64,000 bases of DNA from positions 158,048-222,047 of the forward strand of contig JBEKVV010000005.1 in NCBI GenBank assembly GCA_049513715.1, in the 5' to 3' direction. Source of the stretch: Candidatus Bathyarchaeia archaeon (GTDB lineage Archaea; Thermoproteota; Bathyarchaeia; 40CM-2-53-6). The notes beneath the pieces are model-generated. The model was not told the origin of the DNA. It did not search any database and saw only the letters and a list, made by a program, of their open reading frames with translations. Position numbers and translations under genes: made by a program. Positions 8,941 through 57,686 of this stretch are shown in pieces (within the stretch, counting starts at the first letter, position 1; each line of letters begins with the position of its first letter).

Positions 8941-8980
8941 GGTTCAAATTGCGTTGCCCGCACCAGCTGACCCACACACA
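8941..8980 (+). repeat. R2 site (T-loop form)
   Basis: GGTTCAAATTGCGTTGCC-CGCACCA-GCTGACCCACACACA; last 22 bp identical to 10000-10021. Confidence 0.8.
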
Positions 8981-8995
8981 GCCAAGATCGTTTCG

Positions 8996-9889
8996 CTAGC
9001 TGGTTCCTTTCTCAAATCCTCTTGCTATTGAATCTACAAGTTCTTCTGCGATGGAACCGTCTGGGTCTAGTTCGGGGTTGAAAATAGCGATGTCCATCCC
9101 TACTGCTCTTTTGCTGCCAAGAGCACAGGTCAGAAGATTCGACAGGTCACGGAAGCTCAGTCCGCCGGGTGTGCGATAGTCCACAGCAGGCATTATGGCG
9201 TCATCCAGTACATCCACATCCAAGTGGATCCAGAATCCGTCAATGCCTGTCTCGATTAGCTTGTCAATAGCTTCTGACGATTTGTTCGTAATTCCACTTT
9301 TCCGAATATCTTCCCATTCAACAGTGAGGACGCCTGTGGTCTTGACGTCTTGGCTACCGTTACGTTGTTGTTCTTCAACATCACGATAACCAAATGCGAC
9401 AGTATGCTCATCCCTAACGAGTGGTTTGAGTCCATCGATGTTCGTAAGAATCTCTGGTCCTCTGCCGGTTACAATTGCAAGGTCCATGTCTGCCACTTCG
9501 CCAGTTGGCGAAGCTGATGGTTGGTAGAAATCAGCGTGTCCGTCGATAAAGAAGAGTCCATAGTTGCCAAGTTGCCGCAGTGCAAGCATACAACCAATCA
9601 AGATACTGCAATCGCCCCCCAAAACTAGGGGAAAGAAACCGTCCGTTATCTCCTGTCGTATTTTATTCGATAGGGAAATGGAAAATTCACGTATCCCTTT
9701 CGAGTTAAGTACGTTCGTTTCACTGTCTCTTTGGTAGCTGTATGAAGAGATGGGCACTACTCTTCCATGATACTCCGCGCCGACCCTCTGGATTAATCCT
9801 TTAGCCTTCAACGCTTCAGGCAATCTCTCGACCCCCTGAGGTTTCAGGCCTAGGATAGAGGGACCATCAACGACGGCTATGGGCTTCAT
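8996..9889 (-). CDS. Arginase family protein
   Basis: LGGDCS, FIDGHADF and HLDVDVLD ureohydrolase motifs. Confidence 0.88.
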   Translation of the reverse strand: MKPIAVVDGPSILGLKPQGVERLPEALKAKGLIQRVGAEYHGRVVPISSYSYQRDSETNVLNSKGIREFSISLSNKIRQEITDGFFPLVLGGDCSILIGCMLALRQLGNYGLFFIDGHADFYQPSASPTGEVADMDLAIVTGRGPEILTNIDGLKPLVRDEHTVAFGYRDVEEQQRNGSQDVKTTGVLTVEWEDIRKSGITNKSSEAIDKLIETGIDGFWIHLDVDVLDDAIMPAVDYRTPGGLSFRDLSNLLTCALGSKRAVGMDIAIFNPELDPDGSIAEELVDSIARGFEKGTS

Positions 9890-9992
9890 TACACTTCTGA
9901 GAATACCCGCTCCGACTTTAGGAGTTATTCTTGTAAGGCGTCTTTCATTTCATGCGCAAGACTGAAGACTCTCCAAGGGCGCGCCGTTTCTA

Positions 9993-10021
9993 GTGTGTGC
10001 GCACCAGCTGACCCACACACA
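9993..10021 (+). repeat. R2 site (symmetric form)
   Basis: GTGTGTG-CGCACCAGCTGACC-CACACACA. Confidence 0.8.
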
Positions 10022-10039
10022 AAGGACTAGATGTCTAAG

Positions 10040-10071
10040 TCAGAGATGGGTCAGGGGATTTTGACCCCACT
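10040..10071 (+). repeat. R1 site 5 (right arm lost)
   Basis: TCAGAGATGGGTCA-GGGG-ATTTTGA-CCCC-ACT. Confidence 0.85.
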
Positions 10072-10175
10072 AGCCTGGTCTTGAGTACGTTTAACAGTAA
10101 CAGTGTAACAGTAATCTATCACGTCAAATGTCTCATTTTGAGATTATTGCGATGGGTTAGTCGGTGGTTCATGTT

Positions 10176-10217
10176 GGTTCAAATTCTGATGCTCGCACCA
10201 TTAGACCCCACACACAC
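10176..10217 (+). repeat. R2 site (T-loop form)
   Basis: GGTTCAAATTCTGATGCT-CGCACCA-TTAGACCCCACACACAC; 10177-10198 is the exact reverse complement of 56384-56405. Confidence 0.8.
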
Positions 10218-10318
10218 TGAACCCCACGATTCATTCCAAAGTTCAGGCATGATACCCAGACACATCGGCTAAAGCAACCTACATGAACAGAACCCGATGA
10301 GCTGGTCGTAGTGTAGAC

Positions 10319-10909
10319 TTGGACCAGCACATTGCCTTTGGGCCCGAAGAAACCGTAATCTTGATTGTGTGTCTTGTATGGGCGTTCAGTGAATTTGTGG
10401 GAGGTTACATTATCCCTCGTTTGCGAGGAAGAGGGACGGTCAAAGCGAGAAGTGATAAGGGTTCTAGCATGGTTATCTGGTTGAGTCTCTTTGTTTCGAT
10501 AACTATTGTCTTCTTTTTCGGGAAGAATGGTATCACGCTGCTGCCCGATTGGTTCTTCTATCTTGGGATACCGTTGATGGTGGCGGGAATTGCGTTTCGT
10601 CAGTGGGCGATCCTCGTATTGGGCCGGTTCTTCTCGACTACGGTTAAGATCATTAGCGACCACAGAATAATCAGTAATGGACCATACCGGCTTATTCGTC
10701 ACCCTACCTACGCCGGGTCACTCCTCACCCTCGTGGGCCTCGGTCTCGCCTCGAGAACATGGGGAGGCACACTGGTTATTGCGGCTCTGTTTGGGTTAGT
10801 CTACAACTACCGCATCAGTGTCGAAGAAAAAGCATTGAAAGCAGAGTTTGGACAGGAGTACGTTGACTACGCCGGAAAAACAAAGCGGTTAATCCCATTT
10901 CTGTTGTGA
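10319..10909 (+). CDS. Isoprenylcysteine carboxyl methyltransferase (ICMT/PEMT) family membrane protein
   Basis: GPYRLIRHPTY, RISVEEKAL..EFG.EY..Y and RLIPF motifs. Confidence 0.88.
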   Translation: MDQHIAFGPEETVILIVCLVWAFSEFVGGYIIPRLRGRGTVKARSDKGSSMVIWLSLFVSITIVFFFGKNGITLLPDWFFYLGIPLMVAGIAFRQWAILVLGRFFSTTVKIISDHRIISNGPYRLIRHPTYAGSLLTLVGLGLASRTWGGTLVIAALFGLVYNYRISVEEKALKAEFGQEYVDYAGKTKRLIPFLL

Positions 10910-11046
10910 ACGGGGATATCAACGCGGAGTGGGCATTCGCCCATCCTTTTCGGATTCGAACATCGTGGTTTTGGTCAAGCTCGTATTTGCAGCGGTGAAG
11001 GGCTTAGCTTGCGTTTCACTCAGCGTTCCGACAGCGGTAGCCATTT

Positions 11047-11463
11047 CTACTTTTCAAGTAGGCTTGTGAAGAAGTCGTGGTGTTCTTCTTCCTCAGCCTC
11101 TATTTCTTCGAACATCTCCTTCGTGGCTACGTCTCCTTCCTTGTGGGCTTGTTCCATGATTTCCTTGTACATTTTGATGGCGCCCTCTTCCGCCTTCACG
11201 TCTAGTGTCAACATTTCCGTCAGGTTTTCGCCGACTTTTATCGGGCTTGGTTGTATTGTCGGTTTTCCTCCGAGGTACCAGAGGCGTTCAGCCACCTTCT
11301 CGGCGTGCTTCATCTCATCAACAGCGATTTTCTTGATTCCCACAGTAACGGCGTAATGTTCAACGCCTTTCCATTGAACGTGTTGCCACATGTACTGAAT
11401 TGCTGCCTGCATCTCATCAGCGATCGCATTGTTCAACATTCCCAGCAGCTTCTCTGAAGCCAT
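11047..11463 (-). CDS. Ferritin-like (bacterioferritin-type) protein
   Basis: E..A..QY, DEMKHAE and EEEHH di-iron ligand motifs. Confidence 0.88.
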   Translation of the reverse strand: MASEKLLGMLNNAIADEMQAAIQYMWQHVQWKGVEHYAVTVGIKKIAVDEMKHAEKVAERLWYLGGKPTIQPSPIKVGENLTEMLTLDVKAEEGAIKMYKEIMEQAHKEGDVATKEMFEEIEAEEEEHHDFFTSLLEK

Positions 11464-11600
11464 TCAACACATCTCGACTACCACTCCTCAGAAGCCTCGA
11501 AATATACGACTTTTTTTCAGTAGTGAAAACTCCTCAGGACAGTGAATTACGTAGGGTAATTTATGTGACCTCTAGAAACACGTACTCAGCTTAGAGGCGG

Positions 11601-12393
11601 TTGTACTACGAAAGTTGTTGTCACGTCCGATCATCACTTGGGTTACGCAAATGCTGACAAGACAGCGTTCAACGCATTCCTCGACAACCTTAGTCAAGAA
11701 AGCGATGTTACGCACATGGTTCTTCTTGGAGATGTGGTGGATATGTGGAGGAGGGATGCTGCAGGGGTATTCCTGGAACACCACGACACAGTTGCTAAGC
11801 TTCTTGCTCTCAAATCCAAAGGGGTCCAGGTATTTTACGTGGCGGGAAATCATGATTATCATGTCGTGGATCTTGTCAACCCAGCATATCCCCTTGAGTT
11901 CAGGAAGGAATTGAGCCTGACTGATGGACAGTTCAATTATCGTTTCGTTCACGGCTACCAGTTCGATCCTGAACAGAAGATGCCTTTGATGGCATTCTTG
12001 TGTCGAGTAATGTCCGACCAAGGCGGTGCCCTAGAGAGTAACTTATGGGTAGATTTCAATAGCGTGAACAATATTTTCTCGAAGATAGAACCCTCTTTCG
12101 TAAAAGCAGATCTAGCAGCGATGGCTGAGCGGCTTCACCGGCGCCCTGAGGATAGACTAAAGGAGTCTCTCAATAAAATCAATATGACTGCTTGTAATGA
12201 AGTCAAGCCTGGGGAAGTTCTCATATTTGGTCACACCCACGTTCCATTCGTCAACAAAGCGGAAAACGTAGTGAACACCGGTTCTTGGGTTAAAGACGCT
12301 GTCATCCACAACACCTACGTGGAGCTTAGCGGTGGAAAGCCCAGACTCTTCGTGTACGGTGGACATGAAATAACTGAACGCACAGAACCTTGA
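11601..12393 (+). CDS. Metallophosphoesterase (LpxH-like); 5' end possibly frameshifted
   Basis: VVTSDHHLG motif lies upstream of the listed start (11638); GDVVD, GNHD, HG, FGHTH and NTGSW motifs; no in-frame start codon before the first motif. Confidence 0.75.
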
Positions 12394-12592
12394 CATCCTT
12401 CTTGTTCTCAAACTTTTCTTGCATAACAGCGTATCTCCAAGTGTGATTTTCCGCTTTTGTTTTGTTTCTGTGCTTTCACTCCTGACAAGCATGACTCGTG
12501 CGAGGAACTGAAACATGTTTTGCGTTCAACTGTTAACAAGAAAGAAGAAGAGAGAAACCACGGTCTGCTGTCTCCCTCTGCGGCGGATTGGG

Positions 12593-12760
12593 CTAGGTTT
12601 GTTTGATGGCGCCCTGTAATTTCGACATCAAATCCGGAGAGAGGGCACTCATTCCATGAGTCTTAGCATGGTCCATTCCTTTCTTCAATAGATCGTCTTT
12701 GTTCTCTGCCTCTAGCTCCATAGTGCATCCAGACATGGGGCACTTCAATTTGAAACCCAT
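12593..12760 (-). CDS. Small metal-binding protein, DUF1059-like (55 aa, not in ORF track)
   Basis: Manual translation MGFKLKCPMSGCTMELEAENKDDLLKKGMDHAKTHGMSALSPDLMSKLQGAIKQT; GAGGTGA ribosome-binding site upstream. Confidence 0.75.
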   Translation of the reverse strand: MGFKLKCPMSGCTMELEAENKDDLLKKGMDHAKTHGMSALSPDLMSKLQGAIKQT

Positions 12761-12928
12761 AAGATATTCACCTCTACGGGACGAGAGTTTGTAGTCCTAG
12801 AACATAAAAAATCTTCTAATACTGTCGTAATCACCAAAATGTGCACGTTCTCATACGAACGGCTTCTAAACGTCTAGCAAGCAACGGTAAGGAAAAAAAG
12901 TGGAACGAACTTCTGGGTGGCGGAAGTC

Positions 12929-13123: not shown

Positions 13124-13244
13124 TCACCTCCATTCTTCTTCCTTCATCTGCCTCGTGCCCAATGACCCGTTAACATTCAGAGCCCTAATCTGTTTTGCGA
13201 ACCTGTCAAATGGATGTTAAGAGAGAGGCATCCTGCGAATGTAC

Positions 13245-13272: not shown

Positions 13273-13339
13273 GAACTAAGTCGGAGTTAGACTATTACTG
13301 TTCGCTACAATAATCACTGGTTGTGGAGACGTCGACGGA

Positions 13340-17015: not shown

Positions 17016-17038
17016 TAGCAATGCAACGAGCAACGTCA

Positions 17039-17132
17039 GTTCAAATTACGTTGTCCGCACCGTCACTGCCACACACACTCAAAATGACGGTTCAAATTCC
17101 ACCGCTCACACCAGTAGACCCCCACACACACA
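17039..17132 (+). repeat. Two tandem R2 sites
   Basis: GTTCAAATTACGTTGTCCGCACCGTCACTGCCACACACAC and GGTTCAAATTCCACCGCTCACACCAGTAGACCCCCACACACACA. Confidence 0.75.
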
Positions 17133-17184
17133 GGAACAAGTCCCGCTCAAACGACGATAAGACGCCACTAGTTCACAATAGTGA

Positions 17185-17679
17185 TTGATGTCATTCTTAT
17201 ATGACATGAATGTGGTGCAGGAAATTACTATCCCACCAACTGAGGAGAAATGTATAATGGGAAAACGAAATCAGGTTCAGCACGTTATTGAGTGGACTAT
17301 CTCTGGCGGAAAAGCCGATGCCTTCAAACATAGTGTCCCAGTGGTTTCAATTGTGATCTTGGTCATTATTTTTTCCACTTTTCTAGCAAGTCAATTAGGC
17401 AGAAATGTCTGGACGAGTACAATTCTGATGGTTCTGTTTGGGGTCATCGGAATAGCTGGACTTGTTAAACTTAGAAATCCTGTAATCTTAGAACTTGGTG
17501 CTATTGGTTTCGTGGCAGATATCGTGTGGGAGCTTTATGGAACTGGAAATCGATTGTGGAGTTATTATCATTCGCCGTTTTACATGATAGGTGGAACTTT
17601 GCCAATAGAAATAGCAGTGTTATACTTTTTCTTAGGGATGACTGCAGCGGTTTATGCACTATACAGATTGGAAAAATAG
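17185..17679 (+). CDS. Hypothetical membrane protein (start uncertain)
   Basis: About 4 hydrophobic segments in the C-terminal two-thirds. Confidence 0.5.
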   Translation: MMSFLYDMNVVQEITIPPTEEKCIMGKRNQVQHVIEWTISGGKADAFKHSVPVVSIVILVIIFSTFLASQLGRNVWTSTILMVLFGVIGIAGLVKLRNPVILELGAIGFVADIVWELYGTGNRLWSYYHSPFYMIGGTLPIEIAVLYFFLGMTAAVYALYRLEK

Positions 17680-17725
17680 TGAAGCATCGCTTTCAATCTG
17701 TTCCTCTCAGTCACATGATCCGGTG

Positions 17726-17810
17726 GTGTGTGGGTCTGGTGGTGCCCACACACACTAAAACGACGTGGGAACGACGTACGACGACGGTTCAAATCCCTCT
17801 CCCGGCGCCA
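17726..17810. repeat. Inverted R2 site plus tRNA-Ser-like 3'-end remnant
   Basis: GTGTGTGGGTCTGGTGGTGC at 17726; GGTTCAAATCCCTCTCCCGGCGCCA at 17786-17810 (T-loop, acceptor strand, G discriminator, CCA). Confidence 0.7.
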
Positions 17811-18040
17811 ATTTGTTGGTACGTGTAAATAGCTGATTATGGCAATAATGATGAGCATTCTAGTAACGAAACTCATCATATGTCCTCTTCACCAAGGAGC
17901 CTATTTGTGTATGTCACTTCTCACAATCATGATGAGTCATGTGAAGGGATTGAATGTGAGCCCGTTTAGGTGGCAGCATGATTCTACCCATGCCGAGGTC
18001 TTAAGTACTTAGCATAAGCATGTAGCTGTTAGAAACTTTC

Positions 18041-22074: not shown

Positions 22075-22553
22075 GGGAAGGGCATAGTCTACAGCATCCA
22101 ATGCGGATCCCAAAATCCCAATGGCAATGAGTTCTGTGGAAAATGTGGCACTGAAGTTCAAGACTAGTGCCCGGTTCGTCCCTAGTATGTTGGTGCGCAC
22201 ACCCACTTTTTCACGCTCCTCGCTTCGCTTTGTGTGATATGACTGGTGCGCGACGACGACGAAAAGACGGATGGTCTGTGGGTTGGGGTTTGTTGTTAGG
22301 TGGTTTGTGGTTGAGTGGTTAGTGGCGTGTGCGCACCACTATACCCACACACATTCATCGCGGAGGATGGGAAGAGGTTGCTGAAGGAGTGGCTCACAGA
22401 ACGAGAATCGATGCTGGAAAAAGCAGGGCTAGAGGATTCAGACTATTTCTTCCTTAACTGGCGTCGGAAATCGAGATGCAGGTAACAGCCGCGGAACACG
22501 GGCATGATGCACAGGCTTAAGTTGCCTATGATAGAGCTATCGGTGATAGGCCA

Positions 22554-24467: not shown

Positions 24468-24510
24468 GTGTGTGTGTGGGTCCAGTGGTGCGGCCGCCGG
24501 AACTCGAACC
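24468..24510 (-). repeat. R2 site (inverted)
   Basis: GTGTGTGTGTGGGTCCAG-TGGTGCG-GCCGCCGGAACTCGAACC on +. Confidence 0.78.
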
Positions 24511-24552
24511 TACCTACGTGAATCCTTGGGACGCAGGGAAATCATCTAACTC

Positions 24553-27583: not shown

Positions 27584-28678
27584 ATGATGAGCTTTGCAGA
27601 ATTTGACAAACAAACCTATGAACAAAGGTGGGAAAAGGTACAAAGAAGGCTAAGGGAGACTGGGAACGAAGCTTTCTTAATTAACCAACCTGGGAATGTC
27701 AAGTACCTTTCGTGTGCTCACATCCCAAGATTCCTGCCTGTCAGCAGCCTCATAATTCCGAAGACCGGTGACATCGTCGCTCTTGCTTATCCTCTAGAGA
27801 AACCACGTGTAAGATCACTCTCAACTATACACGAGTACCTTCTCCTTCCGAATCGCGTGCCTAGTGAGTCTCTTGTGAGAGCTGGAATATGCAGAGTACT
27901 TAGGAAACTGAGAGTCCGAAGATTGCTGAGCGATACACCCGAGCATCTTCCGGGACTTGCCTTGAAACTCGACGACTTCATCTTCAAGTTGAGGGAACAG
28001 AAGAATGATGAAGAGATTCAATGTATCGCTAAGGCTTGCGAGATCGTTGTCGGCGTAATTTCCTACGCCGAACGTGAACTGTTGAAGCCTGGTTATACTG
28101 AAGTCGAGATAGCCGCAGAAATTGACCGTGAAGCAAGAAGGTCTGGGGCTCAGATGATGACCTTTGATACTATGGTTGCTTCTGGAGAAAACTCTGCCCA
28201 CCCACATCACTTTGTTTCAGATAGACGTGTGAAGGATCATGATTGGGTAGTTTTGGACTGTGGGGCATTCTATCGAGGTTACTGTTCTGACGTAACTAGA
28301 ACATATCAAGTAGGAGGGCACAGCGCTGAGTTCGAGAACATTCACAATATCGTTACAGAAGCGCAACGAAAGGCAATAGAGCTGTCACGGGCAGGTGTAA
28401 AACTGAGTGTCATCGACAGCGCTGCACGTAACGTAATAAAGGAATCCGGCTACTATGGTAATTTCACAACTGTCACAGGACACGGATTAGGCGTTACGAT
28501 GGGAGGGAGCGGGGGTGAGCGGCCCACTATAGCCCCCGGCGCTGCGGGCAGGGCTAAGAACGGCAACGTTTTCACTGTCGAGCCGGGGATTTATCTCGAG
28601 GGGAGGGGAGGCGTGCGAATCGAAGACGATGTGGTCTCCTTTGAAGACGCTCGCGTACTTTCACGATCGGAATTGTGA
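27584..28678 (+). CDS. Xaa-Pro aminopeptidase/prolidase (M24B)
   Basis: HPHH, LDCG....GYCSD.TRT, GHGLG, TVEPGIY...GGVRIEDD. Confidence 0.88.
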   Translation: MMSFAEFDKQTYEQRWEKVQRRLRETGNEAFLINQPGNVKYLSCAHIPRFLPVSSLIIPKTGDIVALAYPLEKPRVRSLSTIHEYLLLPNRVPSESLVRAGICRVLRKLRVRRLLSDTPEHLPGLALKLDDFIFKLREQKNDEEIQCIAKACEIVVGVISYAERELLKPGYTEVEIAAEIDREARRSGAQMMTFDTMVASGENSAHPHHFVSDRRVKDHDWVVLDCGAFYRGYCSDVTRTYQVGGHSAEFENIHNIVTEAQRKAIELSRAGVKLSVIDSAARNVIKESGYYGNFTTVTGHGLGVTMGGSGGERPTIAPGAAGRAKNGNVFTVEPGIYLEGRGGVRIEDDVVSFEDARVLSRSEL

Positions 28679-28688: not shown

Positions 28689-29783
28689 TTGGTTGATCGA
28701 AATCAAGAACTAAGAGAAGATTGTTTGGCACTCCTCAAGCGACTCCTAGAGGCGAGGGGTGTCTCTGGTTATGAAAACTCGATCAGAGATCTCGCTATGA
28801 ATGAACTGAAGAATTACGTGGACAATGTCGATGTTGACAACCTTGGCAGTGTAATAGGGGTGAAAAAAGGACTGGCCGACAAGCCGGCTATCCTAATGAT
28901 AGCAGCCCACATGGATGAGATAGGACTCCTAGTGAAACATATCGACGAGAAAGGCTTCCTATATTTCGAAAAGGTAGGAAGCGTTCATGAGAGATTTCTC
29001 TTCGCACAAGCTGCAACAGTACACACTGAGAAAGGACAACTAGAGGGAATCATCTTCTCCGAACCATTTGACACCCCGGAGGAACAGGAAAGGAAAGTCC
29101 CGGACTTGAAGTCATTCTATATGGACCTTGGAGCAAAAAGTAGGGCTGAAGTCGAACACCTAGGCGTGAGAATTGGGGACCCCATTACTATCGAGAGGCC
29201 TTTCAGAACCCTAGCGGGAAAGAACACGATAGCCAGCAGAGCATTCGACGATCGCGTTGGAATGTGCGTCCTCATCGAAGCCATGAAGCAGCTTAAAAAT
29301 GAACAACTGCCGCTCTCAATCTACGTTGTCTTCACTACCCAAGAGGAAGTTGGATTACGAGGAAGCCACGTTGCAGCATCCAAAATTGCCCCCCAAATGG
29401 CGATAGCCGTGGACGTAATGCCTGCTCGAGATACACCCGGCTTCAAAGAGAAAGAGTACATAACAAGGCTGGGCAGAGGACCAACAATCACGATAATGGA
29501 ATCAATACCTGATACACCCATAGGTCTGCTAACTCATCCAAAAGTCAGGAGGATGCTAGTCGAAACGGCTGAAGCCGAGGGGATTCCTTACCAAAGGGAG
29601 GTGTCCGCCGCGGGAACTAACGATGCCGCAGCTATTCAGCTAACGGGTGAAGGTGTTCCAAGTGGCGCAATTACCATTCCAACAAGGTACACACACGCGT
29701 ATGAACTGTTGGATACAAGTGACGTTGTGGACTCTGTTCGGTTGCTCGTTGCGTCCCTCCGTCGTGCGCATAACTACCTCTAA
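28689..29783 (+). CDS. M42 family aminopeptidase (TET-like)
   Basis: GVSGYE, AAHMDEIG, AFDDRVG, QEEVGLRG, AVDV, GTNDA, PTRYTH. Confidence 0.9.
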   Translation: MVDRNQELREDCLALLKRLLEARGVSGYENSIRDLAMNELKNYVDNVDVDNLGSVIGVKKGLADKPAILMIAAHMDEIGLLVKHIDEKGFLYFEKVGSVHERFLFAQAATVHTEKGQLEGIIFSEPFDTPEEQERKVPDLKSFYMDLGAKSRAEVEHLGVRIGDPITIERPFRTLAGKNTIASRAFDDRVGMCVLIEAMKQLKNEQLPLSIYVVFTTQEEVGLRGSHVAASKIAPQMAIAVDVMPARDTPGFKEKEYITRLGRGPTITIMESIPDTPIGLLTHPKVRRMLVETAEAEGIPYQREVSAAGTNDAAAIQLTGEGVPSGAITIPTRYTHAYELLDTSDVVDSVRLLVASLRRAHNYL

Positions 29784-29913
29784 GTGAATGAAACGCAGAT
29801 CGCGTTACTGCCTTGAGAACCCCCTCTGATCTACTGTATCGAGAAGTGTTAGGCGCCGAACCGCCGATGCACATCCGTCAGACCGTCAATTAGCAAATTA
29901 GCCAAAATGGCAT

Positions 29914-40187: not shown

Positions 40188-42092
40188 ATGATTACTGACG
40201 CACCAAAGGTGTCTTTTCCCAAAGAATTCCACACCAACAAAACAAAACTTCTCCTTTTGTCCGAGGAGGAAGCAGCTCACGATGCCGGACCATACGACCT
40301 TACTGAAAGCTACGCACTGCATGCAATATACCTGCCCTGCAACGTCACTGCTCTTTCCAAACAAGCCAGAAGTCTGGACGTTCCTGATGAGGGGGAGAAC
40401 AACGGCAAACAACTAGATATGCCGTTTCTACTCTACGTCCACGGTACGGACAGAGGGTTGGTGCTGATAGATTCTGGTATGGCAGATATTGGAGAGTTCA
40501 GATTCAAGTTTCGGTCTCTCTGTCCATATCGGTACGGCCTCGGTCCATCGACAGTGAACCAGTTTGAGAGAGGGAGCACGATATCACCCTCCGAAGTCTT
40601 CGGACATGTTCTGCAGTACATCCGTTCACGTGTAGACTTCGATGATGAAGTTACTTACCGAATTCTAGCTATCTGGAGTATCGGAACACATTTCCATCAA
40701 GCGTTCATGACGTACCCATTTCTGAAGTTTGAAGGCCCTCCAAGGTGTGGCAAGACTACAGCGAACTACACTGCAGGATCAATCAGCTTCCATCCAATCT
40801 TTACACCCGATCTATCGGATGCTTCTTTCTACCGTCTCCGTGAAGGACTCTCGGCCACCGTAATCATGGATGAACGTGATTTCAGTAAAAGGGAAACAAG
40901 TAGATTCGATGAATTCTTGAATAATTCATTCACTCGGGGCGGGTGTGTTGTCCGTAGTGATAAGGACAGTAATGGCAACATAGTGCCCACTCTGTTTCGA
41001 GTCTTTGGTCCATTCTCGTTTTCTGGTGTACAACAACTGCCCTACATGACTGAGACACGGACACTCATCATCAATATGCGAAGGACATTGCTGGCTCAAT
41101 ATTCAGGAACTACACCACTACTGGATTGTGATGAGGTAGCACAACTTCGGGACCAACTCTACCTCTTGCGACTACAGGTTGGACAACAAGTTGCGAAAAT
41201 CTATCGGGAGCTAAAACCTGAATCATTCGGGCTTGACACGAGAATCTGGGACATAGCTCGACCTCTAATAACCGTTGCTCGGATGGTTACTCCTGAATCA
41301 ATCAGCGATATTGTAACCTTCGTCAAGGCCCAAGGCCGAGAGAGAGAAGATGATGCAACAGACAGGGAAGAGATTCAATGTATCGCTAAGGCTTGCGAGA
41401 TCGTTGTCGGCGTAATTTCCTACGCCGAACGTGAACTGTTGAAGCCTGGTTATACTGAAGTCGAACACCTAGGCGTGAGAATTGGGGACCCCATTACTAT
41501 CGAGAGGCCTTTCAGAACCCTAGCGGGAAAGAACACGATAGCCAGCAGAGCATTCGACGATCGCGTTGGAATGTGCGTCCTCATCGAAGCCATGAAGCAG
41601 CTTAAAAATGAACAACTGCCGCTCTCAATCTACGTTGTCTTCACTACCCAAGAGGAAGTTGGATTACGAGGAAGCCACGTTGCAGCATCCAAAATTGCCC
41701 CACAAATGGCGATAGCCGTGGACGTAACCGTAGCTCGGGATACACCGGGCTTCAAAGAGAAAGAATACGTAACAAGGCTGGGCAGAGGACCAACAATCAC
41801 GATAATGGACGCAATACCTGGGACATCTACGGGTCTGCTAATTCACCCGAAAGTAAGGAGGATGCTAGTGGAAACTGCTGAGGCCGAAGGAATTCCTTAC
41901 CAAAGGGAAGTGTTCGTCGGAGGCGCTAACGATGCCGCAGCTGTTCAGCTAACGGGTGATGGTGTTCCAAGTGGCGCAATTACCATTCCAACAAGGTACG
42001 TACACGCGTATGAACTGCTCGACATAGGTGACCTTGTGAACTCTGTTCGGTTGCTCGTCGCGTCCCTACGTCGTGCGCATGACTATATCTAA
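40188..42092 (+). other. Chimeric ORF: mobile-element P-loop (DUF3631/primase-helicase-associated-like) N-part + 98 bp of the M24 gene + C-terminal part of an M42 peptidase
   Basis: GPPRCGKT and IMDE in the N-part; 41367-41464 identical to 28010-28107; 41455-42092 collinear with 29146-29783. Confidence 0.8.
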
Positions 42093-48395: not shown

Positions 48396-48438
48396 ATGGG
48401 GTAGGGGATTTTGACCCCAATTTACCGGTACATATAAA
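48390..48438 (+). repeat. R1 site 10
   Basis: TCAGGGATGGGGTA-GGGG-ATTTTGA-CCCC-AATTTACCGGTACATATAAA. Confidence 0.92.
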
Positions 48439-48446
48439 CTGGCTTT

Positions 48447-48526
48447 GTGGGGCCGGTGGGATTTGAACCCACGATTCGTGGGACTAATGACCATTTTAGG
48501 AGCCCGAAGGGATTCGAACCCTTCGA
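48447..48526 (-). repeat. Two tRNA 3'-end remnants
   Basis: GTGGGGCCGGTGGGATTTGAACCCACG and GGAGCCCGAAGGGATTCGAACCCTTCG on + are reverse-complement T-arm plus acceptor strands. Confidence 0.75.
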
Positions 48527-48592
48527 AGTGAACTTCAATCATTGGAGTGCCCAACCGTTCTGGCACGTTCTGTCGCAGCATTATCGTTGGAG

Positions 48593-49078
48593 TTAGTCTT
48601 TCTTCGTCGCCTTTGGGGTGTCGAGTTCTTCTGTTTGTAGTTCTTTGATTCGTGTTTCCACGAATTGAGCTATCCTTTGCTGGCCATATTCCTTCATTTC
48701 GCTTTGTTTTTTCATGTGCTGTTTGATTGTTCGAAGGAGTTCGTCCATGTTGATTGGTTTGACCAAATAGCCGTGGGCGCCCTTGTTTACTGCGTCTATG
48801 GTATTCTGTAATGCAGGGTATCCTGTGAGAATGATCTTGATCATCTCTGGGGTTGTTTCCTTCATGGCGGTGAGAAGTTTTGTGCCTTCCATGTCTGGTA
48901 AGCGAATGTCTACGAGCGCGAGGTTGTAGAAGTTGGTTTGGGATTTCTCAATGGCTTCCTTGCCATTGCTCGCTGTGTCTACTACGTAGCCTTCGCTCTT
49001 TAACGCTTCAGCGACGACTTTGCGTGTTCCTTCATCGTCGTCTATGACGAGTATTCTGCCTTTTTCGTCTTCACTCAT
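48593..49078 (-). CDS. Response regulator (receiver domain)
   Basis: ILVIDDD, LVDIRLPDMEG, ILTG, YLVKP. Confidence 0.92.
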   Translation of the reverse strand: MSEDEKGRILVIDDDEGTRKVVAEALKSEGYVVDTASNGKEAIEKSQTNFYNLALVDIRLPDMEGTKLLTAMKETTPEMIKIILTGYPALQNTIDAVNKGAHGYLVKPINMDELLRTIKQHMKKQSEMKEYGQQRIAQFVETRIKELQTEELDTPKATKKD

Positions 49079-51996
49079 AATGGTTCACCTCCCGTCTGGA
49101 CGTGTTGGATTGGGAGTTTCAGCGTGAAGGTTGTTCCCTTTCCAACGGTGCTCTCAACGGATATAGAGCCACCATGGGCTTCTATAATGCGTCTGCAGAT
49201 TGGCAGTCCCAGCCCAATTCCCTTCGCCTTGGTCGTGTATAGTGGTGTCCAAATTTTCTCCACCATGTCTTGCGGGATTCCAACTCCTGTGTCCCTGATG
49301 GATATAGACACCTCTTGCTGTGTATTCATACTCGAGATCGACAATTTTCCGCCTTCCGGCATTGCGTCGATAGCGTTCTGAATAAGGTTGGTAAGTACAC
49401 GTTTGATCTTGGGTTCATCTGCGAGAATTTCTGGTGCATCAGCTGTCGTATCCTCTACTGTGATGTTGTTTGGAATCTTAACATCCGTAAGCGTCTGTCT
49501 TACGATCGATTTTGGTGTGGTAGGCACGAGTTGGAGCTGCATTTCTCTTGAAAACTCCAACAGGTCGTTGATGATTCCATTCGCGTGTTGAACTCCGTTG
49601 TCTATGACTGCCAGCATCTCTTTCGTGGAGGGGTCGGGTGCGTTTCGGAGATTTCTTCGTATGTTGTAGGTGGCTCCGGCTATTCCTTGCAGAGGGTTAC
49701 GTAGGTCATGGCCCACCATCGCAGCAGTTTCTCCAATCGCGGCGAGCCGCTGCGATTTGACAAGCTGTGCCTCCAACTTTTTCTGGGGAGTCAAATCGAC
49801 TATGCAGATCAGAACCTTTGCGAGTGATTGCTCGTAGCCAGGAACTACAGCGCATATCACGTTGCATTGCTTCGTTTCGCCGCCCAGAGTTCTGTTTTCG
49901 AGTTCTCCTTCATAGTACTTCTTGCCTTGAGCCAACGCAACGAGTTCACCCACAAATGCACGATTCGATTCTTCTGTTAAGACCCCGCTTAAACCTCCGA
50001 TAATCTCAACCTTTGACTTCGCGTTGTAGAGATCTAAGGTGGCTTCGTTCACGTTGAGGACTTTCACCAGTGCAGCGCATTTGGCAATGTCCTTGGGGTG
50101 GTTGGCGAAGTAGGCGCCAAAATCTGAAACCCCCTTTTGTCGCAATTCATCTAGGAATTGTTTCACTACGGAGAAGTCTTCCTCCCAGAGCGATACTGGG
50201 CAGGCTTCAAACAGCTCACGATACTTCTCCTCGCTTTCCCGTAGGTCCCTGGTTCTCTCAGCCACCAACTCCTCCAAGTGCAGCGAATGCTGCCTCAATT
50301 CCTCTTGCAACCGTTTACGTTCGGTGACGTCGCGGAGTATTCCTTCATGGTAAATGATGTGTCCCTGTTCGCCGTGAACGTAACGACCATGGTCTTCTAC
50401 CCAGACCTCGGACCCATCGTTTCGACGCATCCTGTATACTTCCACTTCTTCTTGGCCCGTGTCCAGAATGTGACTTCCGCGTTCTTCGGGTGAGAAATAC
50501 AGTTCCTTCTTGATGTCCGTAATGTCCAAGACTTCCTGCTTGCTCGAATACCTGAACATCTTTACAAAAGCAGAATTGACGTCGACAAATCGGCCCCCGT
50601 GCGTGCTACGGTATACTCCATCCAGCATCTGATTGAAGAGAGAACGGTATCGCTCTTCCGACTCACGAAGGTTCTCTTCCGCCCTCTTGCGTTCGGTGAT
50701 ATCTTGATGGGTTCCGATCATTCGGAGCGCTCGACCATTGGCGTCTCGGGCGCTTGCTCTTCCTCGGCCTAGAATCCATTTCCACCCGCCGCTCTTGGTC
50801 CTCATCCGAAATTCTATCTTGAAATTTGGGATCCGATTCTCAATGCAGTCTTGGTTGCTTCGCAAAACCCCGTCCCGTTCGTCAGGATGAATGAGATCCA
50901 TCCAAGACTGTGCAAGACCTGGGAACTCATCAGATTCATAGCCGAGCATCTGATAGTAGGCTGGACTGTAATAGATCGTACCAGTTTCCACGTTCCAGTC
51001 CCACAACCCATCATTGGTTGCTTCCATCGCCTGGCGGAAGCGTTCCTCGCTCACCCTCAACGCCTCCACCGATCTCATGCGTCCAAGCGCTGAGCCCACG
51101 TGAATCGCCAATGTCTCCAGAAGTTTCTGGTCTTCATCGCTAAAGGCGTCGAGACGTACGCTATCCACGCATAGGACTGCAACGGCTTCAGCGTCGATGA
51201 GCACGGGCACGACCAGTTCCGAAAGTACGGTGGGAGGGCCCGTCCAATCGTACCCTTTGGGGTCGACAAAGGCGGGTTCTTTTCGGGTATCGGATATTCT
51301 GAGTGTCGTCTTGGTGTTTGCAGCTTTGACTGTCGTGCCACGTCCCTCTAATGGCTGCGCTGAGAAGGCTACGGGTCTACCTCTGCTTCCCTTGATTTGT
51401 AGAGAGTCGTTTTCAACTAACAGGAAGTAGGCGTGTTCGAATCCAAGCGTAAACTCCAATGCATCAAGAGTGTACTTGACTATAGTGTCAATTTCCTCCG
51501 CTGAGCTGAGTTGCGATGCGTGCGTGTGTAGCGCTAGCAGCCTAGTTTCGTACTTGGCGCGTTCAGTGATGTCGACCCCCATGACAAGAAAACTCCGTTG
51601 TCCTTCTTCATCGAGTGCAAGTTGTTTTGGTGGAAGCAATAGGGTGCGGGTCGAGCCGTCTTTGCTTCGGAACGCCACCTCAAACTCTGAGGCTGCTCCG
51701 TCAATCAATGCCGCCTGTATTTGTGCAGCTGCTTTTTTCCTATGCTCAGGGACAACGAAGTCCAGAACATTCTTGCCGAGGATTTCATCCCTTGAGGCGC
51801 CCGACATTTCGAGAAGCGCGTTGTTTGCATCTATTATCTTTCCGTCTGGACCGAGCATCAGCATGACCGCTGAGCCGTCTTCACAAAGATACTTGTATTT
51901 CCGTTCAGAATTCAACAGCAGCGGTCGCGACTTAATCGACCTGCCCTTGGTTAGGTTTCTTTTCGTCATTTTTCTCGTCGTTTTCTCAATCAACAC
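49075..51996 (-). CDS. PAS/GAF sensor histidine kinase
   Basis: Multiple PAS/PAC domains, GAF, H-box VGHDLRNPL, N/G boxes (NLIQNA, DTGVGI, GIGLGL). Confidence 0.93.
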   Translation of the reverse strand: MLIEKTTRKMTKRNLTKGRSIKSRPLLLNSERKYKYLCEDGSAVMLMLGPDGKIIDANNALLEMSGASRDEILGKNVLDFVVPEHRKKAAAQIQAALIDGAASEFEVAFRSKDGSTRTLLLPPKQLALDEEGQRSFLVMGVDITERAKYETRLLALHTHASQLSSAEEIDTIVKYTLDALEFTLGFEHAYFLLVENDSLQIKGSRGRPVAFSAQPLEGRGTTVKAANTKTTLRISDTRKEPAFVDPKGYDWTGPPTVLSELVVPVLIDAEAVAVLCVDSVRLDAFSDEDQKLLETLAIHVGSALGRMRSVEALRVSEERFRQAMEATNDGLWDWNVETGTIYYSPAYYQMLGYESDEFPGLAQSWMDLIHPDERDGVLRSNQDCIENRIPNFKIEFRMRTKSGGWKWILGRGRASARDANGRALRMIGTHQDITERKRAEENLRESEERYRSLFNQMLDGVYRSTHGGRFVDVNSAFVKMFRYSSKQEVLDITDIKKELYFSPEERGSHILDTGQEEVEVYRMRRNDGSEVWVEDHGRYVHGEQGHIIYHEGILRDVTERKRLQEELRQHSLHLEELVAERTRDLRESEEKYRELFEACPVSLWEEDFSVVKQFLDELRQKGVSDFGAYFANHPKDIAKCAALVKVLNVNEATLDLYNAKSKVEIIGGLSGVLTEESNRAFVGELVALAQGKKYYEGELENRTLGGETKQCNVICAVVPGYEQSLAKVLICIVDLTPQKKLEAQLVKSQRLAAIGETAAMVGHDLRNPLQGIAGATYNIRRNLRNAPDPSTKEMLAVIDNGVQHANGIINDLLEFSREMQLQLVPTTPKSIVRQTLTDVKIPNNITVEDTTADAPEILADEPKIKRVLTNLIQNAIDAMPEGGKLSISSMNTQQEVSISIRDTGVGIPQDMVEKIWTPLYTTKAKGIGLGLPICRRIIEAHGGSISVESTVGKGTTFTLKLPIQHVQTGGEPL

Positions 51997-52381
51997 ATGT
52001 ACCCAGCCACTTGGATGATGAGTTCTGCAGCTTCATCTTCGCCTCGTCAACATATTCGAGCAGAGTGCGACTCGGATTGTCTGTGAACTCGAGCCCCAAT
52101 TTGAGGTAGAATCTTCTGGCGATGGCCTTTGTTATGGTCTGCGAACTGCGAACGCCAAAAATCTTCTCCAGAGTAGTGAGTAGAGTGTCAAGTCTGTAAG
52201 GGACCTCATCCCTCGAAATGGAGTAAATTGTTTGTAGATGGGCATATAGCGCATCAACCACGGCTTGGCTAAGTAGATCAGTTATGGTCTCGTCTATGGA
52301 TTCGACCAAGACATCGTTGAACTCTCTGCCGAGTTGTGGTTGTCGCAATTCAATCAGCGGATCTTGAAGGCCTCTATGCAT
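51986..52381 (-). CDS. Conserved archaeal hypothetical protein upstream of the kinase
   Basis: 131-aa helical ORF overlapping the kinase start. Confidence 0.6.
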   Translation of the reverse strand: MHRGLQDPLIELRQPQLGREFNDVLVESIDETITDLLSQAVVDALYAHLQTIYSISRDEVPYRLDTLLTTLEKIFGVRSSQTITKAIARRFYLKLGLEFTDNPSRTLLEYVDEAKMKLQNSSSKWLGTCVD

Positions 52382-52396
52382 CAGCGCCTGAGAGGT

Positions 52397-52558
52397 TTAT
52401 TCCTCGATCTTCACCGTGCCTCGTTTTACCAGAATCTTATCGTGGTCTTTGATGAACACTATTAGGTCGCCGTTGTTGGCCCTGAGGAATTCTCTTACAA
52501 ATTTCGGGAGCGTCAACTGATATTTTCCCGTAATCGTAGACTTACCTACAACTTCCAT
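52397..52558 (-). CDS. AbrB/MazE/SpoVT family DNA-binding protein
   Basis: STITGKYQLTLPK.VRE.L....GD.IVF. Confidence 0.85.
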   Translation of the reverse strand: MEVVGKSTITGKYQLTLPKFVREFLRANNGDLIVFIKDHDKILVKRGTVKIEE

Positions 52559-52775
52559 GGAATCACGCCTACATGGAAACATGGAATACGTGGTCATACG
52601 TATTCTGTCACTATCAATAGGACCGTTTGGTAACAACCCAAGCAAACGTGGAAAAGCCTTCGAAAACGGCTCAAAAATGAGGAGAGCAGGATCAAAATCG
52701 GGCTATCAAACCCATGATATGGTGGGGTCGGTGGGATATCAGCCACGAATTTCGATACAGGGTGTGGAGCTGAAA

Positions 52776-54720: not shown

Positions 54721-54832
54721 ATTTCCAACTCAAATGCTCAACGAAACAGTTCAGTGGACATTCTCGGGCCAACCTTGAGACGACGTGTCTGGCATTGATT
54801 TGTGTGTCATTAAAGGAAGCTTCTGAACTAGC

Positions 54833-54882
54833 TCACGGATAGTTCAGCGGATTCGAACACCAATCTACTTGTACATATAAGC
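54833..54882 (+). repeat. R1 site 13 (degenerate)
   Basis: TCACGGATAGTTCA-GCGG-ATTCGAA-CACC-AATCTACTTGTACATATAAGC; same spacing as consensus; followed by a tRNA-end remnant and an R2 site (54924-54959). Confidence 0.7.
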
Positions 54883-55000
54883 ACAGACTTGTGAGGCCGG
54901 TTGAATTTGAACCCTAGTTTTCAGTGTGTGTGTGCACGCACCAGCCTATCCACACACACGAGAGGACTGGCTGCTTGTAACTGCGGCTAATGCATGATGT

Positions 55001-56344
55001 TTAGCTTTGGACTTTGCCAGAAATCATGGCGCCACCGCTTTCCTGTTTCCGGTTGTGGTGGAATATGATGAAGAGCAAGCAACCTATCACCAGAAACACG
55101 CTTCCCATCAACAGTATTTGCAGATCCATATAGGCCAGTAAAGCCACTGAGGAGATCACCGCCAAGAATGGGATGTATCGGGTGTGTAATACGTGAGTTT
55201 TCCAATTCGCTCTGGCGAGTAGTCTGATGGTCGAAAGACAGCTGAAGAGATATGGAATAATTGTGAAGAGAATTGTTAGAGAAGCCAAGCTTTTGAAATC
55301 TGAAACGGCGAAGACTAACGAAATGGCGAGAACAGTCTGAATCATCATGGCGCGATCAGGAGTATTGAATCGGCTGTGCAAATGGTCTAAGAAGCTGGGG
55401 AACAAGCCGTCCTTTGCCATCGCATAAGATATTCGTGAAGCTCCGAGGATTACGGCATTCAATGAACCTAGGATAGCGATCAATCCACCCAACGCTACTA
55501 GAATTCCTCCAGCATTTCCGACGTATGACTGGGTTGCCGCTTGGAACAGGTCAGCAAGGGGTGATTGTGAGGTCAGGTATGATTCCCAACGTCCTAATCC
55601 CAACGCTGCGCCAGCGACGAGTAGATAGATCGCCATGACAGTGAAGACGGAGATGATTATGGCTCGGGGGACGGTTTTCTTGGCGTTATGGATTTCTTCT
55701 CCAGGCACGGTTATTATTTCGACACCCAAGTATGCCCACAAAGCGAAGACGGTGGCGGATCCGATTGCTGGTAGGAGATTTGCTTTTGGAGGAAGTAGTG
55801 GGTAGTAGTTCTTGAAGTTCAACAATGAAAACCCGACAATTGCGAAGACGATGAGTGGAACTATTTTGCCCACCGTGAATACGTCTTCTGTCCTCCCCCC
55901 TGATTTTACGCCTCTATAGTTCACCGCAGTTAGAAGAAGAGCGATTGCTGTGGAAATGAGTATTCTCTGGAAGTTCGAAAGGTACGGCAGGAAGAATCTC
56001 AAATAGAGTGACGCTGCGACTGTCTCAGTCGCTATCGTCATCCAATATCCAGTTCAGAACGACCAACCGGTCAAAAACCCAACGCCATTTCCGAATGACT
56101 TGTGAGCGTAAGCGTAGAGTCCTCCTACCTGAGGCACTTTCTGCGCATTCTCCGCAAAGCAAAGACCGGTTATTATTGAGTAGACTCCTGCTATGATCCA
56201 CGAGACAAGCGAATATGTACCTGCCACGCTTGCCATGAGTATTGGAAAGAGGAATATTCCGGAACCTATTATGAAACCAATCCCGAGAAGCACTGAGTCG
56301 AAGAGACTCAGATCTTTAGTGAACCGCGTCTGGACTTTTCGCAA
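55001..56344 (-). pseudogene. APC amino acid permease interrupted by an in-frame TGA (56054-56056)
   Basis: ORFs 56054-56344 and 55001-56041 share a frame: GFLTGWSF*TGYWMTIA; IIGSGIF, GGLYAY, WAYLGVE, SRISYAMAKDG. Confidence 0.82.
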
Positions 56345-56383
56345 CTTGGGCTGTGATGACTAAGAGGGGATTAATACGTTTCC

Positions 56384-56527
56384 GTGCGAGCATCAGAATT
56401 TGAACTTGTTCAATTTCGTGTGTGTGTGGGTCTGATGGTGCGGGCACCAGAAATTGAACTGTCAGTCCCGCCGTAATTTTGTGTGTGTGCGCGCACAAGC
56501 ATACCCACACACAGGTCTGGTGGTGCG
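56384..56527. repeat. Cluster of R2 sites
   Basis: GTGCGAGCATCAGAATTTGAAC; GTGTGTGTGTGGGTCTGATGGTGCGGGCACCAGAAATTGAAC; GTGTGTGTGCGCGCACAAGCATACCCACACACA; GGTCTGGTGGTGCG. Confidence 0.78.
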
Positions 56528-56575
56528 TCTCTCATTCCTACCATGACGAGGTGGCTATTGTCGTGTTCAGACAAG

Positions 56576-57514
56576 CTAGCTTTCTCCTGACACTGTCAAG
56601 TGCAGTCCAGTGAATGGGATTGCCCCCTTTTCACGGAAGGACTCGTGCACTTTTCGTATATTAGTTGAGAGCGAGAATTTGTGATAGAGGACCGTAAGAA
56701 ATAACGACGCCGGAAACAAGAAGAGAAGCAAAGTAGCTAAACCAATCAAGGCCGAGGTAAACGTCCCACCCGCCGTGAAGAGACGCACCAGAACTGAGTA
56801 GAATGCGCCTAACCCCCATAGATTCGCGAGAAACGGGCTCCACCTGAAGTCTTGAACTATGAACCTCCTCCTGTCGAAGAATCTCAATTCGAGTCCCTCG
56901 ACGACGAATTTCACCGGTACAATAAAGGCTGAGAATGGTAGAAGCCAGATACTCGTCCAAAGCAGGTTGTAGGCTAAGCTGAGGGCGGGATCAGCCGCGT
57001 GGTTTCCCAAGATACCGATCTGTACGAGTGAATCTGCCAGAGGAGGACTTGCCTTTGCGAGATAACTCAGAATCTGCAGTGTGATGTTTGAGAATCCAAA
57101 GAAGAAGAGAAGTGGGAAGATGGATCTCGTAACGATTTGGAATTCACTGAAACCTCGCTGGGCAGATCCTGCGCCCAGCAACGTGTATTTACCGAGATCC
57201 GGATGAAATCTGGACTTGCCAAATCCATGAATCATAACGCACGCCATCCTCGGCGAGACAAAATGCCATAGGACCTCAGCAAGGCAGGCGAATCCTAAAG
57301 AGTACATGGCCAGAGAGGGACTCCACCACAGAGAGATGACTATCGCAACTGCAACTAATGCGCCAGTCATGATAGTGCCGCGTTTCCGATTGCCCCTCTC
57401 AAGCGAACGTTTTCGCGGCGGCTTGATGGTTGCCTTGAAGTAGAATGGCCGGCGGCAGTTCTTGCAAGACTCTTGGTCCGGTTCCGAATTAGTCCCACAT
57501 TGCAGGCATTTCAA
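56576..57514 (-). CDS. Hypothetical membrane protein with N-terminal zinc ribbon
   Basis: CLQCG...CKNC followed by about 6 TM segments. Confidence 0.65.
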   Translation of the reverse strand: MKCLQCGTNSEPDQESCKNCRRPFYFKATIKPPRKRSLERGNRKRGTIMTGALVAVAIVISLWWSPSLAMYSLGFACLAEVLWHFVSPRMACVMIHGFGKSRFHPDLGKYTLLGAGSAQRGFSEFQIVTRSIFPLLFFFGFSNITLQILSYLAKASPPLADSLVQIGILGNHAADPALSLAYNLLWTSIWLLPFSAFIVPVKFVVEGLELRFFDRRRFIVQDFRWSPFLANLWGLGAFYSVLVRLFTAGGTFTSALIGLATLLLFLFPASLFLTVLYHKFSLSTNIRKVHESFREKGAIPFTGLHLTVSGES

Positions 57515-57645
57515 GCCTATCGCTTCATCTCATCGCTGGGCAGTACGAAATCGAACTCGCAGGTCAACTAAATCATTTCGAAAGTGAATGGTGGACTCAT
57601 CCGCCTAGTTTCAATCGTCGACTAGCCTCACAGTATTTTCTCTCT

Positions 57646-57686
57646 GTGCGTGTGATACCAATGGTGCGAGCATCGCAATTTGAACC
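57646..57686 (-). repeat. R2 site (inverted, degenerate)
   Basis: GTGCGTGTGATACCAA-TGGTGCG-AGCATCGCAATTTGAACC on +. Confidence 0.7.

Follow-up and report, generated by a model that had tools for sequence, protein, structure and literature searches.

The stretch of 64,000 nucleotides analysed here (the window) comes from the genome of a Candidatus Bathyarchaeia archaeon (G000; 2.79 Mb, 11 contigs), in which it occupies positions 158048-222047 of contig C5. It is a patchwork of accessory genes that ends in a tyrosine integrase behind an intron-split tRNA, and two families of short sites, R1 and R2, are interleaved along it. The question raised by this locus is what the R2 sites are and which enzyme made them. 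An initial annotation had taken them for attachment (att) sites of a second recombinase not encoded in the window. The idea of mobile-unit ends served by an enzyme from outside the window stands, but the kind of enzyme does not, since in related genomes the sites bracket a Cas1-solo casposase. We estimate at roughly 80% the probability that R2 sites are the insertion junctions of a casposon lineage that lacks PolB and resembles family 2 casposons. Established in this work are the anatomy of the sites, the existence in relatives of cas1 elements bounded by them, without PolB and with an ATPase of predicted MCM fold, the presence of targets 32-52 bp inside element ends, and a change of flanking sequence precisely at the sites. 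Coordinates are window positions unless a contig (C1-C8) or locus (L) prefix is given.

Anatomy of the R2 sites

Each site has a central 14-mer, CGCACCA-N7, preceded either by a leader (GGTTCAAATT at -18 to -9, with G at -3 in 49 of 50 cases) or by an inverted arm ending in GTGTG, and usually followed by an arm beginning CACAC. The site is a composite of a tRNA-Gly-type leader, with TCAAAT 8 bp upstream, a 14-bp target duplication starting with CGCA and a terminal inverted repeat (TIR; CACACAC). The genome-wide scan called for by the initial annotation returned 104 sites in G000 and none in the reversed or the complemented genome; removal of four non-Gly tRNA ends and one doubtful site left 99, and 88 of these have another site within 5 kb.

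Three tRNA-Gly-type 3' ends are present in G000, of which two are occupied directly by the arm and one is empty, whereas four Ser/Leu-type ends that also finish in CGCACCA have C at -3 and no arm. These Gly and Leu identities come from a manual reading of stems and anticodon loops, as ARAGORN missed or misnamed intron-split tRNAs; a scan of the window against Rfam gave no matches. The initial annotation had expected the arm at a further tRNA-integrase locus, and the tRNA half of this expectation is borne out by the two occupied genes, but no tyrosine recombinase was found in 1.04 Mb of R2 flanks from 130 loci. Because the sites retain the positions read by casposases and have lost the 3' strand of the tRNA T-stem, their conservation points to selection for enzyme recognition rather than for tRNA function.

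Complete cas1 elements in related genomes

When the open reading frames (ORFs) flanking R2 sites in 130 loci were clustered, Cas1 (10 loci) was the sole recurring family of integrase type. Its best match in the PDB is the Methanosarcina mazei casposase (6OPM; E 4.3e-69, against 4.5e-21 for the next), in an alignment that spans to residue 403 of 404, through the helix-turn-helix (HTH) region at the C-terminus, and the catalytic residues E167, H236, D250 and E253 are invariant in 12 of 12 copies. By sequence, this clade is hence closest to 6OPM among solved structures, and the likeness of its Cas1 to family 2 is one of sequence similarity. At an identity of 67% or higher, the clade has at least 120 member proteins, and a casposase query has matches, some of them weak, in 15 of 22 genomes of the same genus, as well as in the R2-rich genome G034.

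A metagenome scan yielded 80 cas1 loci; of the 70 that are at least 4 kb long, 62 contain an R2 site (one of 70 in the reversed control), and no CRISPR array was found near cas1. Twenty repeat pairs bracket cas1 in 18 of these loci, and larger regions of relatives hold six cas1 elements between identical 14-mers. After setting aside four pairs (a duplicate of L287 and three without matching TIRs) and adding five from relatives, 21 complete elements of 3.6-17.5 kb remain, each with an intact Cas1-solo gene and with two ends that have the identical 14-mer and share a TIR type. The TIRs are short (mostly 9-26 bp of ungapped match) and made of CA, C, CCG or CGA repeats, save for one element with a longer unique TIR. 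Rare 14-mers are found among the duplications of complete elements, two elements sit at intact tRNA-type ends, and 18 of 22 complete elements are followed by another TIR, an apparent preference for occupied sites.

The gene content of these elements departs from that of family 2 casposons. A PolB motif scan of 1397 ORFs matched only a polymerase outside any element, and this outside control was again the only PolB hit of Pfam searches over large element-region ORFs (66 of 118 scanned, plus others). One HNH domain was detected among 49 element proteins scanned, and none of the recurring element families is an HNH cluster. A small conserved protein is encoded by 14 of the 21 elements, an ATPase by 14 and both by 13. 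The structural model of the ATPase (pLDDT 87) identifies it as an AAA+ ATPase of predicted MCM fold, since all the Foldseek matches listed are MCM proteins (best E 1.2e-7, TM 0.64); its profile had no match among PDB sequences, and a single-sequence query found few relatives. In the small protein, D10, D12, H52 and D76 (DxD, H, D) are invariant in 36 sequences, and seven of the 36 match the Pfam AEP-TOTE family weakly (best E 0.006). Foldseek gave no match at E 0.001, the top rows being a Y1 transposase and then the LigD polymerase, while comparison with PrimPols gave Z scores of 5.3 and 5.0 (105-107 of 121 residues aligned, root-mean-square deviation 3.8-4.2) that unrelated folds tie. Fold searches do not separate archaeo-eukaryotic primases from HUH or other palm folds in this case, and the protein is possibly primase-like. 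The remaining element genes are variable cargo, often of defence type. The cargo family met most frequently next to R2 sites (17 ORFs from 11 loci, L127:10527-11465 and relatives) often lies near adenylate-cyclase and tetratricopeptide repeat genes, and we take it, from manual reading, to be a KaiC/RecA-like ATPase.

At L298:9351-10586, L299:9277-10479, L365 and L386, more distant casposases (39-44% identity) with no R2 sites adjoining, and elements that have a different TIR at another tRNA end (CCCACCA), indicate further sub-lineages with other targets.

Tests of the target-duplication model

Homology between the flanks of site copies was analysed over 491 unique sites. Upstream-only homology was found in 28 pairs, downstream-only homology in 32 and homology on both sides in one, so that flanks switch exactly at R2 sites. 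Sites with a common leader flank have a mean of 1.8 mismatches in the variable 7 bp of the duplication (n=15). For sites with a common element end the mean is 3.9 (n=29, after excluding two tyrosine-integrase tRNA pairs and one duplicated locus), and for random pairs it is 3.7; the variable half of the duplication follows the leader and not the element. Among the 203 correctly oriented pairs from relatives, 29 agree in these 7 bp, a number that none of 2000 shuffles reached (mean 4.7); a few pairs are repeated in this sample through overlapping loci.

Many junctions also carry targets within element ends. A TIR starts 32-52 bp upstream of 23 of 50 leader sites in G000, and a short way upstream of 95 of 228 overall, against a background of 1.2%. 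Tandem junctions 45-78 bp apart occur in 50 cases (e.g. 17056/17107), back-to-back junctions 50-72 bp apart in 25 (e.g. 56442/56492), and there are stacks of three identical 14-mers behind a single leader. The duplications of the tandem units match in one case out of 50, which makes these units element ends with a built-in target rather than short inserts, and led us to reject a proto-CRISPR reading of them.

Junctions in the window

The R2 motif is present at all 13 places listed by the initial annotation, although several copies are more degenerate than it had written them. The deviations are CACCG and TGCC at 17039, CACACCA at 17089 and CACAAG at 56481; the site at 56384 consists of leader and CGCAC without a CA arm, and the arm at 57646 is degenerate. 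The site at 24468 has the tRNA-Gly-like leader GGTTCGAGTT. The 22-mers at 10177-10198 and 56384-56405 are exact inverted copies, as reported. Two motif patterns have 8 and 11 matches in the window, compared with 0.0 and 0.23 on average over 60 Markov resamples, and two sites absent from the earlier list were found at 22197(-) and 22250(-). The features are as follows.

8939..8980, plus: left junction; leader 8939-8958, duplication CGCACCAGCTGACC 8959-8972, TIR from 8973; adjoins an R1 arm
8973..9999, unstranded: enzyme-less cargo unit; TIR at each end, identical duplications, arginase-family gene 8996-9889 (minus)
9993..10022, plus: TIR-duplication-TIR junction; duplication 10000-10013, the same as 8959-8972
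10174..10218, plus: leader, duplication (from 10194) and TIR, ahead of an ICMT-family gene
17036..17132, plus: two junctions 51 bp apart; leader-duplication (17056)-TIR-linker-leader-duplication (17107)-TIR
17123..17732, unstranded: one-gene unit (ORF 17185-17679); both ends inward-facing, duplications oppositely oriented
17726..17755, minus: TIR-duplication-TIR junction; duplication 17733-17746
22184..22260, minus: the two extra junctions; duplications ending 22197 and 22250, the second with a CGA-repeat TIR variant
22325..22353, plus: TIR-duplication-TIR junction; duplication 22332-22345
24468..24512, minus: junction; leader and duplication are a copy of the tRNA-Gly 3' end at C3:86169, with the same 14-mer CGCACCACTGGACC
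54922..54960, plus: TIR-duplication-TIR junction; duplication 54937-54950
56375..56513, unstranded: cluster of a decayed empty target at 56388 (minus), an occupied target at 56442 (minus) and a back-to-back TIR-duplication-TIR at 56492 (plus)
57646..57688, minus: leader, duplication 57655-57668, degenerate TIR
60538..62274, minus: context outside R2; tyrosine integrase 60538-61497 and a 182-aa ORF behind the intron-split tRNA 62070-62274

The double junction at 17036..17132 is a target within an element end. The adjoining one-gene unit (17123..17732) has a second copy on contig C6 (97.6% over 784 bp), where the flank past the right junction differs. A duplication-like 14-mer abuts or lies inside an oppositely oriented TIR at 56514-56527 (minus), L292:2948-2983 and L321:1272-1292, which suggests insertion into an element end. 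Displaced tRNA 3' ends of other types occur at 17786-17822 and 48445-48470, among R1 and R2 sites.

Weighing the casposon reading

Several results weigh against the casposon reading or limit its reach. The pairs behind the mismatch test are not independent, and as nine of the 15 leader-sharing pairs come from one five-site cluster, the associated P = 1.5e-4 overstates the contrast. The 14-bp spacing between the C and the beginning of the arm, seen in 68 of the 90 two-feature sites of G000 and in 346 of 415 overall, was obtained with a scan that permitted offsets of 13-16 only and resolved ties toward 14; the presence of CGCA in 468 of 491 sites is likewise in part built into the scan. Conservation extends to the 3' end of the duplication, which reads ACC or TAC in 365 of 491 sites, though the enzyme of Aciduliprofundum boonei measures that side by distance. 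In G000, moreover, the duplication is shared in only two of 46 correctly oriented pairs (shuffle mean 1.0, reached by 499 of 2000 shuffles), and one of these two is the arginase unit, the only unit of the window with matching duplications. Over all data, 63 of 73 adjacent direct pairs are mismatched, and among units of 400-5000 bp inverted end pairs (77, or 56 + 21) outnumber standard pairs (60). Only 24 junctions are distal-only, against 201 leader junctions, while simple stacking predicts equal numbers. An intact internal target is found at only seven of 44 ends of complete elements, with decayed copies at other ends; set against seven of 2988 interior windows, such targets are enriched at element ends without being universal. 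Finally, the G000 assembly holds no intact cas1 (a Pfam Cas1 search gave 0 matches), and six genomes with R2 sites, among them two near-complete assemblies in long contigs, gave no match to cas1. Six cas1 fragments at five loci of G000 were detected only with a casposase as query; in favour of the reading, four of the five loci lie within 2.5 kb of an R2 site, a distance that covers 7.7% of the genome.

The scrambling of small units could stem from nesting, re-use of composite ends and intramolecular insertion and deletion. Inverted pairs with identical 14-mers, some of them rare variants, are modestly enriched at 12 of 253 (shuffle mean 5.8, with 12 reached by 41 of 2000 shuffles). A joint removing the arginase unit is absent from the 15 listed of 26 read-mapping joints, and contigs cannot show its absence.

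An alternative that shares the casposase would have it make the sites and would attribute the small cargo units mainly to a second process, either homologous recombination or a tyrosine recombinase acting on TIR-duplication-TIR junctions as on a 13-8-13-like site. This would accommodate the dominance of mismatched and inverted ends among small units, the lack of enrichment for paired duplications in G000 and the 12 tyrosine-recombinase-like ORFs that a custom hidden Markov model (HMM) detects in that genome, as well as the M. mazei casposon reported to have swapped a target in vivo for its own reversed duplication (PMC10359463). Yet an exchange inside the duplication would move its 3' half with the downstream end, and sites with a common end are there as dissimilar as random ones (mean 3.9 mismatches, random 3.7). 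Inverted pairs with identical 14-mers fit inversions made by a casposase equally, and no recombinase is linked to the sites, so that we hold this division of labour to be unlikely. A loxP-like 13-8-13 reading of the sites was abandoned after the flank test.

The proposal of the initial annotation, att sites of a recombinase whose gene lies outside the window, here taken to be of tyrosine or serine type, could appeal to tyrosine integrases of the same group, which also lie behind tRNA 3' ends in the same register, and to the viral contig L121, where an R2 site lies about 250 bp from a tyrosine integrase. This is the sole exception of its kind; the viral-contig searches gave five and one matches, and full sites in only two of the five. 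Against it, the custom HMM found no tyrosine recombinase in 1.04 Mb of R2 flanks from the 130 loci, and none of the 11 tyrosine-recombinase-like ORFs of G000 outside the window has a full R2 site within 2.5 kb. The integrase of the window was rejected as the R2 enzyme, as it has no match in four R2-rich, near-complete genomes (G014, G016, G018 and G034), and serine recombinases were rejected with 0 matches to PF00239 and PF07508 in G000. A divergent integrase of 470 aa (L004) was also discarded; it has matches in seven of 22 same-genus genomes and is located at another tRNA. With cas1 being what the sites do bracket, the att proposal is largely refuted and strikes us as very improbable. Nor can the sites be put down to microsatellite similarity, which the initial annotation had itself entertained, or to assembly artefact: the arms do consist of low-complexity repeats, and several contigs terminate close to a site, but the two control genomes hold no sites against the 104 of G000, and the exact core is found in 19 of 22 same-genus genomes (and one of 18 others) with 0 matches to the reversed pattern. 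Contigs from four public runs, which are possibly the source of the same DNA, cover 6000-10022 without difference, and the first sites are therefore not an assembly artefact. We consider this explanation refuted.

Comparison with known systems

The R2 system very probably works like a family 2 casposon. It shares with those of M. mazei and A. boonei (PMC4046053, PMC4779613, PMC6977970, PMC6614799) a Cas1-solo with C-terminal HTH and intact catalytic residues, TIRs, a 14-bp CGCA duplication with TCAAAT 8 bp upstream, a tRNA 3'-end target, tandem insertion at one target and solo ends left behind. In M. mazei, duplications are 14 bp long and start with CGCA, upstream tRNA sequence is required, and mutating positions 12-17 or CGCA abolishes or nearly abolishes integration (PMC6977970, PMC4779613); for A. 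boonei, the motif recognised by the enzyme is TCAAATC, located 8 bp before the duplication, and the second cut is placed by distance (PMC6614799). The family 2 core set, by contrast, comprises PolB, an HNH nuclease and two HTH proteins, and here there is no PolB and no conserved HNH, with an ATPase of predicted MCM fold and a small protein of putative palm fold in 13 of 21 elements instead. Other differences are the short simple-repeat TIRs of four types, the tRNA-Gly target, the target copies inside ends, and the presence of about 100 junctions in one genome (in print, one to three elements) with many natural enzyme-less cargo units. As PolB and the core genes of the published definitions (PMC4046053, PMC9939771) are missing, this would be a casposon in its working, not as first defined. 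Thaumarchaeal casposons have been described with PolB (PMC6563490).

The family 5 casposases proposed from hot springs (PMC9755687) are also Cas1-solo proteins with an intact active site, mostly without PolB and with some TIRs. By their description, they have no C-terminal HTH, which is present here, and group near type I-A Cas1, and that description includes neither a target duplication nor a primase nor Bathyarchaeia. With CRISPR adaptation the R2 system has in common that Cas1 inserts at a boundary between leader and repeat and that the repeat is duplicated, whereas the inserts here are kilobase units with TIRs, no CRISPR array lies near cas1 and the 45-78 bp tandem units are element ends rather than spacers. 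Integrons and the tRNA accretion islands of tyrosine recombinases are likewise arrays of enzyme-less units of one or two genes, with short sites and an enzyme acting in trans. The R2 system differs from them in its Cas1 enzyme, in sites made of duplication plus TIR, and in its use of both orientations and of many loci per genome. In the literature searched, with supplements outside the search and papers covered in part, no paper was found on casposons of Bathyarchaeia, on natural non-autonomous casposons (beyond solo ends) or on targets inside ends, and a term search of the main text of a Bathyarchaeia genome paper (PMC11697101) found neither repeats nor recombinases mentioned.

A proposed mechanism

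By analogy with casposase biochemistry, a Cas1 tetramer would read TCAAAT at -15 to -9, G at -3 and CGCA, and would attach the TIRs by their 3' ends to the two strands, at points 14 bp apart; filling of the gaps would then produce the target duplication. The founding target would be the tRNA-Gly 3' end, and new elements would enter on the leader side of an occupied target, giving rise to tandem stacks. With inward-facing target copies in many ends, each insertion would add targets in both orientations, and we propose that elements consequently nest and islands grow. If any two TIRs can serve as ends, enzyme-less units with ordinary genes would be moved in trans; this cargo model is supported by work in M. 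mazei, where an engineered mini-casposon without the enzyme was mobile in trans and gave rise to a tandem (PMC10359463). The duplications of small units would become scrambled as composite ends are re-used and as DNA is deleted or inverted. As the casposase of G000 survives as fragments only, we propose that its sites are relics or await a visiting element. In place of PolB, the replication module is probably made up of the ATPase and the small protein of putative palm fold; this is the weakest step of the scheme.

Taken to its full extent, the scheme becomes one of self-seeding, Cas1-driven gene capture, in which PolB-less casposons carry a selected copy of the tRNA-Gly target in their ends, every insertion thereby adds landing sites, and ordinary genes are stacked and reshuffled over many islands, in an integron-like fashion, by a casposase that acts in trans. 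This extension is tentative, and we rate it clearly below even odds. If true, it would constitute a living instance of leader, short repeat and polarised Cas1 insertion, free of both the tRNA gene and the autonomous element, that is, of the state proposed between casposons and CRISPR arrays.

Casposons have so far appeared, in the papers drawn upon here, as rare elements that carry PolB and are present in one to three copies per genome. The present work describes a large casposase clade, apparently with another replication module, and around 100 junctions surrounding accessory genes in a single genome, and the casposon reading would explain how these Bathyarchaeia islands grow. The several hundred natural targets and four TIR types are ready-made material for testing the specificity of casposases and the proposal that a casposase target gave rise to CRISPR repeats, and for a compact site-specific integrase able to move kilobase cargo.

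Distribution and association with R1

The TIR-duplication-TIR form is found in 24 of 301 genomes of the class, belonging to 8 of 107 genera, a patchy spread in Bathyarchaeia. The closeness of R2 to R1 noted initially holds up: of the 13 sites on the initial list, seven have an R1 core no more than 150 bp away (two R1 positions having been added by hand), and so do 17 of the 99 sites of the genome, where 2000 local jitters gave 2.9 on average and 9 at most. An R1 arm lies exactly 38 bp upstream of the duplication in nine of 228 leader sites, in several genomes, and part of the proximity is thus explained by a single inherited junction.

R1 copies span 1984-57879 of the window and join an R1 arm to a reversed tRNA T-arm. 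The arm is also the 3' flank (62050-62095) of the tRNA next to the integrase of the window, and in relatives the homologues of this integrase lie behind tRNA ends bearing the same arm; for this reason R1 likely belongs to that integrase. The tRNA itself (62070-62274), which we read as Leu, is absent from the output of both ARAGORN and Rfam.

Other observations

Eight divergent tyrosine-recombinase-like ORFs of G000 were missed by the Pfam search (C1:94777, 383627, 409579, 518410 and 637796; C2:26828 and 114871; C5:85673), mostly with no tRNA end nearby. The ORF at 40188-42092 (634 aa) is chimeric: its N-terminal 393 aa have no Pfam match, the part after them is a 92% copy of the M42 peptidase at 29146-29822, and the two are joined by an exact 98-bp copy of 28010-28107. 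The tRNA-Phe and sensor-kinase region at 48398-52681 has 90-96% copies at C1:889-892 kb and C5:98-101 kb, which may reflect real duplication or strain mixing (assembly contamination is 8.8%). The sequence at the contig end (63551-64000), with a partial ORF that has no Pfam match, recurs at the ends of C4, C6 and C8 (88-96%) and is probably an insertion sequence that breaks the assembly.

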